Shown here one piece after another: positions 6,413 through 60,121 of a stretch of DNA of 64,000 nt (position 1 is the stretch's first letter; every line of letters begins with the position of its first letter). This DNA is from Burkholderiales bacterium (GTDB lineage: Bacteria; Pseudomonadota; Gammaproteobacteria; Burkholderiales; Burkholderiaceae_C), in the NCBI GenBank assembly GCA_028868895.1, contig JAGWTP010000003.1:7392-71391 (forward strand), in the 5' to 3' direction. The translations under genes were made by a program, and so were the position numbers. Under the pieces are notes generated by a model. It saw nothing but the letters and a program-made list of their open reading frames with translations, made no database searches and was not told the origin of the DNA.

Positions 6413-7873
6413 ATGCTCAAGCTCAAAGACCCCAGCCTGTTCCGCCAGCAGGCCCATGTCGCCGGTGAATGGATCGACGCCGACGACGGCACGACCGTGG
6501 CCGTCACCAACCCGGCCACCGGCGAGACGCTGGGCAGCGTGCCGATGTGCGGCGCGGCCGAGACGGCGCGCGCCATCGCCGCGGCCGACGTGGCGCAGCG
6601 GCGGTGGCGCGACGTGTCGGCCAAGGAGCGCGCCGCGGTGCTGCGCCGGCTCAACGACCTGATGCTGGCCAACGCCGACGACCTCGCGCTGATCATGACC
6701 AGCGAGCAGGGCAAGCCGCTCGCCGAGGCGAAGGGCGAGATCGGCTACGCCGCGTCGTTCATCGAGTGGTTCGCCGACGAGGCGCGCCGCATCTACGGCG
6801 ACACGATTCCCGCGCCGCTGGGCGACCGCCGCATCCTGGCGATCAAGCAGCCGGTGGGCACGACCGCGGCGATCACGCCGTGGAACTTTCCCACCGCGAT
6901 GCTGACGCGCAAGGCCGGCCCGGCGCTGGCGGCGGGCTGCTCGATGGTCGTCAAGCCGGCGACGCAGACACCGTACTCGGCGCTCGCGTTCGCTGAACTC
7001 GCGGTGCGCGCCGGCGTGCCCAAGGGGCTGCTGTCGGTGCTGACCGGTTCGGCCAGCCGGATCGGCGGCGAGATGACGCGCAACCCGCTGGTGCGCAAGC
7101 TCAGCTTCACCGGCTCGACCGAGGTCGGCCGGCTGCTGATGCGCCAGAGTGCCGACACGGTCAAGAAGCTCTCGCTCGAGCTCGGCGGCAACGCGCCGTT
7201 CATCGTCTTCGACGATGCCGATCTCGACGCCGCGGTCGAGGGCGCGATGATCTCGAAGTACCGCAACACCGGCCAGACCTGCGTCTGCGCCAACCGCATC
7301 TACGTGCAGCGCGGCGTGCTCGCGGCCTTCACCAACAAGCTGGTCGCCAAGGTCAAGGCGCTCAAGGTCGGCTCGGGCGTGGAGCCGGGCGTCACGCAGG
7401 GGCCACTGATCGACGCCAAGGCGGTGGCGAAGATCGAGGAGCACATCGCCGACGCCCGCGCCAAGGGCGCCGAGGTGCTGACCGGCGGCAAGCGCCACGC
7501 GCTCGGCGGCCTGTTCTTCGAGCCGACGGTGATCGGCGGCGCGACCGCCGAGATGCTGTTCGCGCGCGAGGAAACCTTCGGCCCGCTGGCGCCGATCTTC
7601 GCGTTCGACACCGAGGCCGAAGTCATCGAGCGCGCCAACGACACCGAGTTCGGCCTGGCCGCGTACTTCTACAGCCGCGACATCGGCCGCGTGATGCGGG
7701 TGGCCGAGAAGCTCGAGTCGGGCATGGTCGGCGTCAACACCGGCCTGATCTCGACCGCCGAGGCGCCGTTCGGCGGCGTCAAGCAGTCGGGCCTGGGCCG
7801 CGAAGGCTCGAAGTACGGGCTCGACGACTTCCTCGAATTGAAGTACGTCTGCCTGGCGGGGCTGGACAAGTAG
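6413..7873 (+). CDS. gabD: NAD(P)-dependent succinate-semialdehyde dehydrogenase
   Basis: ITPWNFP, FTGSTEVG, LELGGNAPF, catalytic GQTCVC, EETFGP; N-terminus MLKLKDPSLFRQQA typical of GabD. Confidence 0.9.
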   Translation: MLKLKDPSLFRQQAHVAGEWIDADDGTTVAVTNPATGETLGSVPMCGAAETARAIAAADVAQRRWRDVSAKERAAVLRRLNDLMLANADDLALIMTSEQGKPLAEAKGEIGYAASFIEWFADEARRIYGDTIPAPLGDRRILAIKQPVGTTAAITPWNFPTAMLTRKAGPALAAGCSMVVKPATQTPYSALAFAELAVRAGVPKGLLSVLTGSASRIGGEMTRNPLVRKLSFTGSTEVGRLLMRQSADTVKKLSLELGGNAPFIVFDDADLDAAVEGAMISKYRNTGQTCVCANRIYVQRGVLAAFTNKLVAKVKALKVGSGVEPGVTQGPLIDAKAVAKIEEHIADARAKGAEVLTGGKRHALGGLFFEPTVIGGATAEMLFAREETFGPLAPIFAFDTEAEVIERANDTEFGLAAYFYSRDIGRVMRVAEKLESGMVGVNTGLISTAEAPFGGVKQSGLGREGSKYGLDDFLELKYVCLAGLDK

Positions 7874-52357: not shown

Positions 52358-52379
52358 TCGCCACCCGCACGGTCCGGGT

Positions 52380-53357
52380 TCAGCGAACGATCGGCGGCGG
52401 CAGCGGCGGCGGCGGTGGTGGTGGTGGTGGCGGCAGCGGCAGCGGCAGGCGCGGCATGCACATGCGCCGCGCGATGCCGGCGCTCTCGCTGAAGCTGCCG
52501 GCGCACTGTTCGCGGCTCGACGGATAGATCTCGCCGTGCGCACAGCACCAGCCGGTCTGCGCCGGCGGTGGCGGTGGTGCGGGCCGGCACATCGACTCGG
52601 CGATGCTGCGGTTGGTCGAGAACACGTTGCCGCCGCAGCGGTTCGACCAGCTCGGCACGGCGCGGCCATCGACGCAGCACCAGCCTTGCGACGGTGCCTC
52701 GGCAACGCTGTCGGCCCAGGCTGCGGCGTCGCGCAGCTCGCGCGCGTCGGCGGGCATCACGCGCGGCGCCGTGCGGTTGGGATAGGCGGACACCAGGGCC
52801 TCGAGGGCGTGCAGACGCACCGGCGCCCAGCCGGCCTGGCGCGGGCGACACGCGACGACGCCTTCGGCCACCGCGATGGCCACGCTGCGGTCGGGGCGCA
52901 CCTCGAACAGGAAGCGGGTGCCCTCGACGCCGGCGACGATGTTTTCGCTCGAGGTTTCGAAGAGGCCGCGCAGGTTCGCGAACACCCGCCCGAAGAAGAC
53001 CTCGAGCGAGCCCAGCCGCACGCGTGTGTTCTCGGCCAGCGTGGTGGTGCCGGTGGCCGCGCCCGTGTTGCCGCCGCTGAAGCGGATCACCGCGGCCGAC
53101 TGCGGCCCGGTCTGCACGACGTCGCCACGCTGCAGCAGCATGCCGCGCGTCGCGCGCAGTTCCTGGCCGTCGCGCCAGACCCGCAGGCCGACCTCGGCGG
53201 GCTCGGCCTGCTGCCAGCGCACCTCGGTGCCGGCAACCTCGCGCGCCACTTGCGCGAGCCGGATGGTCGGCTCTTGCGGGCCGGTCTCGCAGGCCGCCAG
53301 CACGAGCGTGATCGTGAGCGCGAGGCCGCGCAGCCACCGAAGTTCGAACGGGTTCAT
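52380..53357 (-). CDS. FecR-domain lipoprotein with two Cys-rich GWCC repeats and a polyproline tail (325 aa)
   Basis: Lipobox LAAC (Cys23); FecR-like GDVVQTG...AGVEGTRF..V.EG; its ATG overlaps the stop of the upstream TIR gene. Confidence 0.75.
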   Translation of the reverse strand: MNPFELRWLRGLALTITLVLAACETGPQEPTIRLAQVAREVAGTEVRWQQAEPAEVGLRVWRDGQELRATRGMLLQRGDVVQTGPQSAAVIRFSGGNTGAATGTTTLAENTRVRLGSLEVFFGRVFANLRGLFETSSENIVAGVEGTRFLFEVRPDRSVAIAVAEGVVACRPRQAGWAPVRLHALEALVSAYPNRTAPRVMPADARELRDAAAWADSVAEAPSQGWCCVDGRAVPSWSNRCGGNVFSTNRSIAESMCRPAPPPPPAQTGWCCAHGEIYPSSREQCAGSFSESAGIARRMCMPRLPLPLPPPPPPPPPPLPPPIVR

Positions 53358-55129
53358 GTCGGGATCCTCCGGAATGCCTGAAAGCGCCTGGCCATCACCT
53401 GCACCGCGCGCAGCGCGGCGGCGGTCAGGAACAACGCCGCGAGGTCGGTGACGACGTCGAGCAGCACCGCGCGCCGGGCCAGCCACACCGCCAGCGCGAG
53501 CCACGCGAGCGCCAGCGCCAGCAGCGCCACGCGGCGCTGCCAGGCGGGACGCTGAAACCCGCCGATGGCCACGGCGCCACCCAGCAAACCGGCCGCCAGC
53601 GTGCTCAGCAGCTGCCGGTCGGCGGTGAGACGCCGCGGCACCCGGCCGCCGGCCAGCGTGCTGATCGCGTCGGCCTGCAACTCCACACCGTAGACGGTGC
53701 GCTGGGCGTAGCCGTCTCGCACCACGTGGACGTCGGCGTTGGCGCCGGGGCGGTCGAGCGCCGTCAGGCCGACCAGCACGATGCGGCCCGCGAAGCGTGC
53801 GTCGGGGGTCTGCAACGGATCGAGCGCCTGCGCGTAGCTGACGCTGCGGGTGGCACTGCGCCAATGGCCGGCCGGCGCGACCCGCAGCAGCAGCATCGGC
53901 CGCACGTCACCGGCGCGCGTGACGCGGCAACCGGGCAGATCCAGCCGCTGGCGCTCGAGGCTGCTGTAGCGCAGCGGCGGGTCGCGCGCCGGGCCGTCGA
54001 AGCGCAACTGGCGGCGTGCGAGATCGGCGTCGAGCAGGCGCTCGCCGACCACCGCGGACAGCGCCAGCGACGGGGTGTCGGCGCTGACCAGTTCGCCGCC
54101 GGCGCCGGCCGCCGGCCGCAGCACCGCCAGCGGCGCTGACCACAGCAGGCCGCCGCCGCGATCGGTCAGGCACAGCGAGCCCCAGGTCGCCGCGTGCTGC
54201 AGCGGCTCGACCAGCGCCGGCGCGCCGGCGATGAGCTGGCGCACGCCGAACACGACGCGCATCGGCCGGGCCGCGGCACGCGCGCGCCGGGCGGCGTCGG
54301 CCAGCACCGGGTCGGCGTCGGTCGGGGTCTCGAAGTACAGGTCGAACACGACCGCGGCCGCGCCGGCCCGCCCGGCGCGGTCGATCAGCCGGGCGTGATC
54401 GAGGCGCCATTCGGCGGCGTGGTCCGGCGCGAAGGTTCGGCCCAGGCGCTGTTCGCTGGCGGCGTCGATGGCCACCAGCAGCACCGGCTCGCCGGTGTTG
54501 GGCCCGCCCGCGGCCAGCAGCAGGCGCTGCGCCTGGGTGTCGAGATTGAGCAGGTCGAACAGCCCGGTCCAGTTCGCCGCCAGCAGCGCGGCGACGATCA
54601 GCGCCGTGACCACCGGGCCGCCCCGGGCAATGCCTGCCAGGCGCGCCCACCGCCGCGGGTCGGGCGCGGGCTCGCCGAGCAACTGCCGCACCAGCTCGTT
54701 GAGGTCGATGTCGAAGCTGGCGCCATGGATTTCGGGCATGTTGAGCACCGCCAGCGCCCGCAGCTCGGTGGGCAGCGCGTCGGCCGCCGGGGCGGTCGCG
54801 CCCTCGACGCGCACCGGCACGATGCGCTTGGCGTGTTCGAGCGCCGTGAGCAGCTCCAGGCGCACCGGGTCGTCGGCCTGCTCCAGGCGGCGCCCGCGCT
54901 CGTTGCGTGCGTCCAGCCAGTGCGGGCCGATCACCACCAGCACCACGTCGCTGGCGGCGATGCGCTCGCGCACCAGGCGCACGAAATCGTCGCCGTAGGG
55001 GATGTCGGAGGTGTCGAAGAACACCCGGTCGGCGCCGAAGCGCGCGCGCAGGGCCTCGCACAGGCCGCGCGCACTGGTTTCGGCGTCGCTGCGCCGGTAG
55101 CTGATGAAGAGCCGCGAGGGTTGGAACAT
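53354..55129 (-). CDS. TIR domain - TM - CHASE2 - 3TM membrane protein (591 aa)
   Basis: TIR motifs FISYRRSD, VFFD..IPYGDDF, VRLE92L; CHASE2 motifs LVAID, AVVFDLYF, GRIVLVG, YGVELQA. Confidence 0.85.
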   Translation of the reverse strand: MFQPSRLFISYRRSDAETSARGLCEALRARFGADRVFFDTSDIPYGDDFVRLVRERIAASDVVLVVIGPHWLDARNERGRRLEQADDPVRLELLTALEHAKRIVPVRVEGATAPAADALPTELRALAVLNMPEIHGASFDIDLNELVRQLLGEPAPDPRRWARLAGIARGGPVVTALIVAALLAANWTGLFDLLNLDTQAQRLLLAAGGPNTGEPVLLVAIDAASEQRLGRTFAPDHAAEWRLDHARLIDRAGRAGAAAVVFDLYFETPTDADPVLADAARRARAAARPMRVVFGVRQLIAGAPALVEPLQHAATWGSLCLTDRGGGLLWSAPLAVLRPAAGAGGELVSADTPSLALSAVVGERLLDADLARRQLRFDGPARDPPLRYSSLERQRLDLPGCRVTRAGDVRPMLLLRVAPAGHWRSATRSVSYAQALDPLQTPDARFAGRIVLVGLTALDRPGANADVHVVRDGYAQRTVYGVELQADAISTLAGGRVPRRLTADRQLLSTLAAGLLGGAVAIGGFQRPAWQRRVALLALALAWLALAVWLARRAVLLDVVTDLAALFLTAAALRAVQVMARRFQAFRRIPT

Positions 55130-55254
55130 GGCAGCGCCCGTCGTTCCACCTTAGCGGCGCGTGCCGGCGCGCACAAGCCGACGGCTTAGGGGGCGCGGGG
55201 GTCGTTGCGCAGGAACGCTGGGCTATTCTTCGAACCCTCACCGAGAGCCGACCC

Positions 55255-59689: not shown

Positions 59690-60121
59690 ATGCGCGCGCT
59701 GCTCGACGTCAATGTGTGGGTGGCGCTGTTCGACGACGCGCACCAGTTTTCGGATCGGGCCAATTCGTTCATCGAGACGCGTGGCGTCAAGATCGCCACC
59801 TGTCCGCTGGTGGAAAACGGCGTGATCCGGGTCCTGAGTCTGCCGAGCTATGGCCGCCGTGGTGGCTTGCCGATACACGTCGTTCGCGAGCGGCTGCGGG
59901 AAGCCTGCAGCGCGCTGGACCACGAATTCTGGCCCGACGACATTTCGTTGCGTGACGATGCGCTCGTGAACTTCAATCGTGTGCAGGGCCACAACCAGAT
60001 CACCGATCTCTACCTGCTGGCCCTCGCGGTGCATCGAGGCGGCTGCCTGACAACGTTCGACCAGGCCATCGCGCTGGCCAGCGTGCATGGGGCCACGGTG
60101 CGGCATCTGAAGCAGCTTTGA
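59690..60121 (+). CDS. vapC: PIN-domain ribonuclease toxin (VapC)
   Basis: ALLDVNVWVAL, CPLVENG, QITDLYLLALA, TTFD. Confidence 0.88.
   Translation: MRALLDVNVWVALFDDAHQFSDRANSFIETRGVKIATCPLVENGVIRVLSLPSYGRRGGLPIHVVRERLREACSALDHEFWPDDISLRDDALVNFNRVQGHNQITDLYLLALAVHRGGCLTTFDQAIALASVHGATVRHLKQL

Follow-up and report, generated by a model that had tools for sequence, protein, structure and literature searches.

How might a TIR domain, lying inside the cell, be placed under the control of the periplasm, and what is the role of the lipoprotein encoded directly beside it? The question is raised by a two-gene locus in a stretch of 64,000 nucleotides of a Burkholderiales bacterium (assembly GCA_028868895.1, contig JAGWTP010000003.1, positions 7,392 to 71,391), which we analysed as a whole and refer to as the window. 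In this locus, the gene for a receptor that combines a TIR domain with a CHASE2 ectodomain overlaps the gene for a lipoprotein with a FecR-like fold, here called the partner. The two look like an undescribed alarm module; our literature search retrieved no description of a TIR-CHASE2 receptor or of its FecR partner, and such proteins carry the labels 'CHASE2 domain-containing' or 'TIR domain-containing', assigned by database pipelines. The interpretation that we favour, with slightly better than even confidence, takes the two genes to be a self-contained sensor-effector module directed at the extracytoplasmic space, in which the partner would act on CHASE2 as co-sensor or regulator and the TIR domain would cleave NAD+. 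The locus is laid out as follows.

53354-55129, minus strand: TIR-CHASE2 receptor gene, 591 amino acids, with the layout TIR, transmembrane helix, CHASE2, three transmembrane helices (translation; Pfam TIR_2 and CHASE2 above cut-off; AlphaFold2 model)
52380-53357, minus strand: gene of the FecR-fold lipoprotein, the partner, 325 amino acids (translation, AlphaFold2, Foldseek)
53354-53357, minus strand: ATGA overlap of the receptor stop and the partner start (TCAT on the plus strand)

The adjacency of receptor and partner is not a matter of chance, because it is present at every homologous locus examined. A scan with the receptor alignment of one genome per species, covering 185,579 species, yielded 80 loci. 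The partner lies downstream, on the same strand, in all 15 of those that hold a full-length TIR-CHASE2 gene together with downstream DNA, and in none of the 64 loci that hold a TIR domain only. The 15 paired species loci belong to beta- and gammaproteobacteria and to a Syntrophorhabdus metagenome-assembled genome (MAG), with receptor identity going down to 31-35%. In the reverse search, a profile of the partner gave strong matches in 7 of 401 genomes of the order, each of the seven with a TIR-type CHASE2 gene directly upstream, and the single congener with the receptor also has the partner. The co-occurrence across genomes that an earlier note on this DNA had proposed as a check is therefore found throughout (15/15, 7/7 and 1/1), in counts that rest on 23 loci in total. 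The pairing of TIR-CHASE2 with a FecR-fold partner is well supported, and for the TIR clade it is obligate. An all-against-all comparison of the flanks of 16 loci found no third conserved gene, only the two genes and antisense shadow open reading frames (ORFs) being shared. The four-base overlap, which the earlier note had located correctly, recurs as ATGA or GTGA in at least 6 of the 11 loci with an automatically placed lipobox start (the window, L002, L007, L009, L011 and L014), an arrangement that suggests that receptor and partner are probably co-translated.

Some of the loci carry features of their own. At L010, a gammaproteobacterial MAG and one of the 15 paired loci, a gene for a solute-binding protein (PBP_like_2; 6528-7415) is placed between the TIR-CHASE2 and FecR-like genes, and its product could be an extra ligand-binding co-sensor. 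In the two Thauera loci (L007, 1740-2801; L009, 1431-2522), the pair is immediately preceded, on the same strand, by a gene for an outer-membrane beta-barrel protein (Phenol_MetA_deg/OMP_b-brl), which calls to mind NsrA, the outer-membrane protein required by the S. meliloti CHASE2 cyclases; this neighbour was seen in that genus only and may be due to chance. L092 retains only fragments of the TIR, CHASE2 and FecR parts, a sign of decay, and three loci of the order (L085, L086 and L089) show a second, more divergent FecR-like ORF beside the first.

The receptor itself can be divided into the following parts.

54680-55129, minus strand: cytoplasmic SARM1-like TIR domain, residues 1-150 (phmmer against the PDB; Foldseek)
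54854-54856, minus strand: codon of Glu92, GAG (CTC on the plus strand)
54554-54637, minus strand: transmembrane helix 1, linking the TIR domain to the ectodomain, about residues 165-192 (hydropathy peak 173-185; AlphaFold2 helix 161-188)
53630-54553, minus strand: periplasmic CHASE2 ectodomain, about residues 193-500 (predicted local distance difference test, pLDDT, mostly above 90)
53372-53623, minus strand: three C-terminal transmembrane helices, then a short basic cytoplasmic tail, about residues 503-586 (AlphaFold2 helices 503-523, 529-551 and 559-586; hydropathy)

Hydropathy, the positive-inside rule and the AlphaFold2 model (mean pLDDT 87.2) agree in placing the TIR domain in the cytoplasm and CHASE2 in the periplasm, with four helices that cross the inner membrane; helix 1 is preceded by four Lys or Arg residues on its N-terminal side and has none on the far side. 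The Pfam CHASE2 family (PF05226) matches residues 176-512 with 81.7 bits, against a cut-off of 26.3, and the succession of one helix, a periplasmic domain and three helices is the usual topology of CHASE2 proteins. Foldseek retrieved no PDB fold match for the receptor outside its TIR domain, CHASE2 included. What sets this protein apart is the position of its output: other CHASE2 sensors carry the output domain past the last helix, whereas here the chain ends about 5-17 residues beyond helix 4, with no output domain there, and the TIR domain stands, unusually, ahead of the first helix.

Regarding the TIR domain, Pfam TIR_2 matches residues 8-114 with 52 bits, against a cut-off of 28. Its best sequence matches among all PDB chains (phmmer) are SARM1 and C. 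elegans TIR-1, at an E value of about 1e-5 (8e-6), and the top 29 fold matches in Foldseek are all SARM1 TIR domains, with template-modelling (TM) scores of 0.8-0.86 when normalised to the isolated TIR-domain targets. The HMMER alignment sets DPVRLE of the receptor opposite DWVHKE of SARM1, and Glu92 therefore lines up with the catalytic glutamate of SARM1, E642, the one in WVHKE. Ser10, Tyr11, Arg12 and Arg13 (the SYRR strand), Asp39, Gly46 and Glu92 are invariant across 63 homologues, with Gly46 lying opposite the BB-loop glycine of SARM1. The receptor thus has SYRR, the BB-loop glycine and the glutamate at the catalytic position in common with SARM1 and TIR-1, although identity is only 22-25%; and while SARM1 is a soluble octamer controlled by its ARM and SAM domains, the TIR domain described here is tethered to a membrane sensor. 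Judged by these motifs, the domain is likely to be of the enzymatic type and catalytically competent. The TIR domains of animal receptors are scaffolds, and the weaker Foldseek matches of the receptor do include the TIR domains of MyD88 and Toll-like receptors (TLRs), so that one may think of a non-enzymatic TIR domain serving as a protein-interaction platform for the recruitment of another cytoplasmic protein. We regard this as very improbable, since the glutamate, SYRR and the BB-loop glycine are kept in all 63 homologues, the best matches are enzymatic TIR domains and no conserved gene for a cytoplasmic partner was found.

Relatives of this TIR domain are also found outside the full-length receptor. 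TIR-only relatives, with 34-49% identity to the receptor TIR domain, are present in 16 of 35 genomes of the genus, often with several copies each, and elsewhere TIR relatives are fused to SIR2-like, MORN or STAND/TPR modules. Full-length TIR-CHASE2 proteins make up about 82 of the best 150 matches in a library clustered at 50% identity, a number that speaks against a very small family.

The partner is composed of four parts, all encoded on the same strand as the receptor.

53289-53357, minus strand: lipoprotein signal peptide with the lipobox LAAC (Cys23) (translation, alignments)
52749-53267, minus strand: FecR-like beta-sandwich core, about residues 31-203 (strands within 32-202 in the AlphaFold2 model)
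52458-52688, minus strand: two four-cysteine GWCC repeats with a proline linker between them (alignment)
52383-52457, minus strand: polyproline tail, ending in PPIVR (translation)

The earlier note had described a lipobox LAAC with Glu at +2 and a FecR-like beta domain, and both features hold. The N-terminus reads MNPFELRWLRGLALTITLVLAAC, followed by ETGPQ; LVLAAC fits the lipobox pattern [LVI][ASTVI][GAS]C, and Cys23 is conserved in at least 90% of the 63 homologues. The match to Pfam FecR (PF04773), covering residues 79-168, is sub-threshold (19.3 bits against a cut-off of 24, E 0.0016), and precomputed matches to the same family exist in many of the homologues. In the AlphaFold2 model of the partner (pLDDT 93.6), the lipobox is followed by an eight-residue tether, the beta-sandwich, a helix, two four-cysteine modules and the proline tail. 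The only significant Foldseek matches of this model in the PDB are four chains from three entries, with probability 1.0 over about 120-190 alignment columns, and these are the periplasmic domains of a Parabacteroides anti-sigma factor (BDI_1681; 4m0n and 4m0h) and of PupR (6ovk_R). Because of this fold match to periplasmic domains of anti-sigma factors, the FecR fold can be taken as real despite the Pfam miss. The superposition extends over about 125 residues for the three well-superposed matches, with a root-mean-square deviation of 3.3-3.9, and within the core Gly116, Ser117, Phe122, Gly123, Phe133, Ala142, Gly146, Thr147, Gly166 and Trp177 are invariant.

The beta-sandwich core is what the partner has in common with anti-sigma factors of the FecR/PupR type. 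Unlike them, it has neither a cytoplasmic anti-sigma domain nor a transmembrane helix, and the match stops at the core of about 125 residues, with none to the part that binds the TonB-dependent transducer (STN). The neighbouring genes include no extracytoplasmic function (ECF) sigma factor and no TonB-dependent receptor (transducer), as had been pointed out before. Beyond the core, the repeats follow the pattern GWCC-x2-G-x-V-x4-S-x-R-x2-C-x-G-x-F...C, for which no Pfam family match was found at E values up to 1, and homologues carry between 0 and about 7 copies of them. The polyproline tail is only 32% identical to that of the congener. Many homologues end in a proline-rich tail followed by a hydrophobic-hydrophobic-basic triplet (IVR, VIR, VIK or TIK), which might be a docking peptide.

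The association of a FecR-domain protein with a CHASE2 receptor is not new in itself. Such gene pairs have been reported with histidine kinases in Burkholderiales and Pseudomonas (PMC5192318) and with adenylate cyclases in Campylobacterota (PMC9239204), and this part of the statement of the earlier note, that FecR genes often neighbour CHASE2 sensors, stands for those groups. It does not extend to CHASE2 at large, the association being clade-specific. CHASE2 occurs in 86 of 121 genomes of the order, and among its 30 best-scoring CHASE2 loci, 26 of which encode cyclases, mostly within clusters of PP2C, FHA, cyclase and phosphodiesterase genes, a FecR neighbour is present at three only, compared with FHA at 17, PP2C at 10-11 and phosphodiesterase at 12-13. 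The other CHASE2 gene of the host genome (contig C6; L083, 4092-9984) is also a cyclase gene, in a cluster of a Ser/Thr kinase, PP2C, FHA, the CHASE2-cyclase and a class-II phosphodiesterase, with no FecR gene. The notion that FecR is an accessory of all CHASE2 sensors is thus ruled out by the three loci in 30 and by this second gene. A 291-residue ORF upstream of the second gene was discarded as an off-frame artefact, the true gene there encoding an FHA protein. A region search for relatives of the receptor's CHASE2 clade with other outputs, limited by its word matching, retrieved TIR-CHASE2 proteins only.

The published pairs, namely the Burkholderia 'BiofilmReg' cluster (response regulator, LysM-FecR protein and CHASE2-histidine kinase), PA4035-PA4036 of P. 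aeruginosa and the CHASE2 cyclase clusters of Campylobacterota, likewise place a CHASE2 receptor gene beside that of a secreted FecR-domain protein (PMC5192318, PMC9239204), and in them as in the present pair the two products are presumed to form a sensing unit. In the Campylobacterota adenylate cyclase clusters, the FecR-domain protein is an outer-membrane protein (PMC9239204). The differences are several. The published receptors end in a C-terminal kinase or cyclase, whereas ours begins with a TIR domain; the partner described here is a lipoprotein with GWCC and proline repeats and without LysM; its gene is downstream of the receptor gene and overlaps it; and the pair comes without a gene for a response regulator, phosphodiesterase or TPR protein. 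The novelty lies in the effector, a TIR domain that unusually takes the N-terminal position, CHASE2/FecR sensory pairs as such being already known.

How, then, might the two proteins work together? In the mechanism that we propose, the partner would be an obligate co-sensor or regulator whose FecR core binds the ectodomain of CHASE2. The complex of the two would be altered by a periplasmic event, which could be the arrival of a ligand, damage to the envelope, or a lipoprotein that is lost or mislocalised. Helix 1 would then carry the signal inward, allowing the TIR domains to associate. TIR enzymes need the association of TIR domains for activity. Once associated, the domains would cleave NAD+, and the outcome would be either NAD+ depletion and a growth stop, of an abortive or altruistic kind, or a nucleotide signal. 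Of the two, depletion has a slight edge in likelihood over a dedicated second messenger, because no conserved reader gene accompanies the pair and SARM1 is the nearest relative of the domain. Published precedents exist. Deletion of CHASE2 renders an S. meliloti cyclase constitutive (PMC5498481), and the CHASE2 cyclases of that organism sense a proteinaceous signal by way of an outer-membrane protein (PMC5498481, PMC13001267). Control of inner-membrane sensors by lipoproteins is known for QseG-QseE (PMC6075780), RcsF-IgaA (PMC4942254) and NlpE-CpxA (PMC6538781), in which the lipoprotein reports the state of the envelope by periplasmic contact; the folds in these systems are unrelated to those described here, and their output is a phosphorelay instead of a TIR domain.

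The earlier note took the partner for a co-receptor or inhibitor in a trans-envelope system. In a specific form of this view, the lipoprotein would be anchored in the outer membrane and hold CHASE2 off, until envelope damage or phage injection displaced it and turned the TIR domain on; the two would then form a guard that spans the envelope and resembles a toxin and its antitoxin. Every partner homologue examined lacks an Asp at +2, which points to the outer membrane by the E. coli sorting rule only; lipoprotein sorting rules differ outside enterobacteria. An inhibitor would also agree with the fact that neither the species scan nor the search of the order revealed an intact orphan receptor without a partner, with the receptor of MAG L012 (7857-9734), which has one in-frame stop beside an intact partner, and with the inhibitory role of CHASE2 in the S. 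meliloti cyclases (PMC5498481). However, the model leaves only about eight residues between the lipid-bearing Cys and what would be the first strand of the FecR core, and some homologues are devoid of the GWCC/proline extension; in those, a core tethered to the outer membrane could hardly reach an ectodomain in the inner membrane. Such a short tether, together with the existence of repeat-less homologues, indicates that the FecR core may be close to the inner membrane. Moreover, the homologue at L003 (1676-2443) has lost the lipobox Cys, with LAGS replacing LAGC; judging by its sequence, it is probably a soluble periplasmic protein, and the lipid anchor is therefore not universal. The gene order, with the effector first and the presumed inhibitor second, is the reverse of that in most toxin-antitoxin operons, and nothing in the present data indicates the sign of the regulation or a phage trigger. 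All together, we consider the displaced inhibitor unlikely, and prefer to see in the partner a co-sensor or regulator that would act on CHASE2.

To describe the distribution of the pair, two further features are needed.

52358-55254, no strand: 2.9-kb segment carrying the pair, missing from most congeners (congener comparison)
55130-55254, no strand: intergenic stretch shared with the divergent oxyR-like gene, in which the operon promoter is presumed to lie

The pair is rare: in the genus, 2 of 35 genomes hold the full-length receptor, and in the order the pair is confined to the 7 of 401 genomes given above. Most congeners (12 of 18) have about 20-50 bp between the stop of recG and the start of oxyR, while here 2.9 kb intervene, with the pair on the opposite strand; in G424, the other carrier congener (78% identity), the pair occupies this recG-oxyR site too. 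In other lineages, the pair occupies unrelated, locus-specific housekeeping settings (acetate kinase, phosphoglucomutase, aconitase, ATP synthase epsilon subunit, PtsP and others). The module is accessory and sporadically distributed, without any defence-island signal.

The recG-oxyR junction is occupied in other ways as well. In the remaining 6 of the 18 congeners (L116, L122, L123, L126, L128 and L131), it contains a different stretch of DNA, at least about 1 kb long, that bears no relation to the TIR pair; in L122 and L123, this includes a 244-residue predicted membrane protein. The junction may be an insertion hotspot.

Several of our results count against the mechanism that we favour. The flanks at 14 related loci consist of housekeeping and metabolic genes, which differ from one locus to another, and PADLOC, run on the 122 flank proteins of these loci, returned scattered and mostly generic matches (helicase, AAA) with one DpdF; the neighbourhood therefore gives no reason to link the pair with defence. 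Searches of viral contigs did not retrieve the partner, and those of plasmids retrieved TIR-only relatives but no full-length receptor. At the active site, Pro88 stands where SARM1 has a Trp, the more distant homologues having Tyr, and for this reason catalytic competence is likely and not certain. One result points the other way: the divergence of the partner core across the 15 pairs tracks that of the CHASE2 ectodomain (Pearson 0.94, Spearman 0.82) better than that of the TIR domain (0.89 and 0.60) or of the transmembrane helices (0.86 and 0.56), as expected of a periplasmic contact, a mirror-tree signal that is weak evidence, coming as it does from 15 related pairs. Finally, a promoter scan found no sigma-70 consensus, and a terminator scan gave a single terminator-like match, inside coding sequence, both scans being uninformative in this GC-rich DNA.

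Two ideas on the genomic setting of the pair were discarded on these grounds: that it is cargo of a mobile element, ruled out by the searches of viral contigs and plasmids, and that it belongs to a defence island, ruled out by the content of the flanks and by PADLOC. The DpdF protein among the flanks of the 14 loci (E 9e-266) and a HerA-like helicase encoded directly upstream of the pair in the Syntrophorhabdus MAG (L006, 5737-7242) are the only strong defence-type neighbours seen.

The housekeeping context keeps a regulatory reading alive, namely that of a second-messenger receptor whose TIR domain would make a cyclic-ADP-ribose-like or related nucleotide upon a periplasmic cue, to be read by an unlinked effector or regulator in the course of adaptive regulation, with neither growth arrest nor immunity as its outcome. 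TIR enzymes that produce signalling nucleotides are known from Thoeris and from plants. By analogy, such a receptor would be in line with other CHASE2 proteins, which make cyclic AMP or cyclic di-GMP (at the 30 best loci of the order, the 26 cyclases already mentioned), with a position among housekeeping genes and outside defence islands, and with a chromosomal location. On the other hand, no conserved gene for a reader or effector was found nearby, the distribution is very patchy even inside one genus, a pattern that a core regulatory circuit does not usually show, and the TIR domain is closest, in both sequence and fold, to SARM1 and TIR-1, which consume NAD. We therefore judge a purely regulatory receptor to be somewhat unlikely, and retain the sensor-effector module with an NAD+-cleaving TIR domain as the preferred reading.

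Within the window, the pair is flanked on one side by Tgt, QueA and RecG, and on the other by the LysR/OxyR-like regulator, Dps, DJ-1/PfpI, RF3 and a PIN protein. The gene of the latter (59690-60121; PIN-domain, VapC-like), 4.5 kb from the pair, follows a small ORF whose N-terminus resembles a ribbon-helix-helix, and the two are probably a VapBC toxin-antitoxin pair.

Comparison with systems of known architecture helps to place the module. Cyanobacterial orthocaspase-CHASE2 and EACC2-caspase-CHASE2 proteins likewise carry a death-type effector N-terminal to a membrane CHASE2 (PMC8195603, PMC3501461, PMC2853523); in these caspase/CHAT-CHASE2 receptors the effector is a peptidase, whereas here it is a TIR domain. 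Thoeris and other bacterial TIR defence systems share with the receptor a TIR domain with a catalytic glutamate, and weak matches to their models are seen, with 40.7 bits against 220 for ThcB4 and only a partial match to the PADLOC ThsB model. In contrast to Thoeris, the present locus has no ThsA-like effector and no defence island, and sensing would take place in the periplasm and not in the cytoplasm. Animal TLRs also combine an ectodomain, a transmembrane helix, a cytoplasmic TIR domain and an accessory co-receptor. This is an analogy only, as the ectodomains are unrelated, and the receptor described here has four transmembrane helices and a TIR domain of the enzymatic type. Taken further, it leads to the bolder and rather doubtful proposal of a bacterial counterpart of the TLR complex, in which CHASE2 and its lipoprotein co-receptor would detect extracytoplasmic danger and the SARM1-type TIR NADase would shut the cell down, with no other gene needed. 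Candidate dangers would be the adsorption of a phage or its injection, an attacking bacterium, and failure of the envelope or of lipoprotein trafficking.

The known bacterial TIR systems are, to our knowledge, triggered from inside the cell. If the reading that we favour is correct, a TIR enzyme wired to the periplasm, with a dedicated co-receptor, would show how events beyond the cytoplasm can govern immunity or suicide based on NAD+ cleavage. As the module spans 2.9 kb, requires no other genes as far as conservation tells and offers in E92 a clear target for a catalytic mutant, it is directly testable in a laboratory strain, and it would then provide a tractable two-gene model both for CHASE2, whose ligands are largely unknown, and for the widespread FecR proteins that are not anti-sigma factors.

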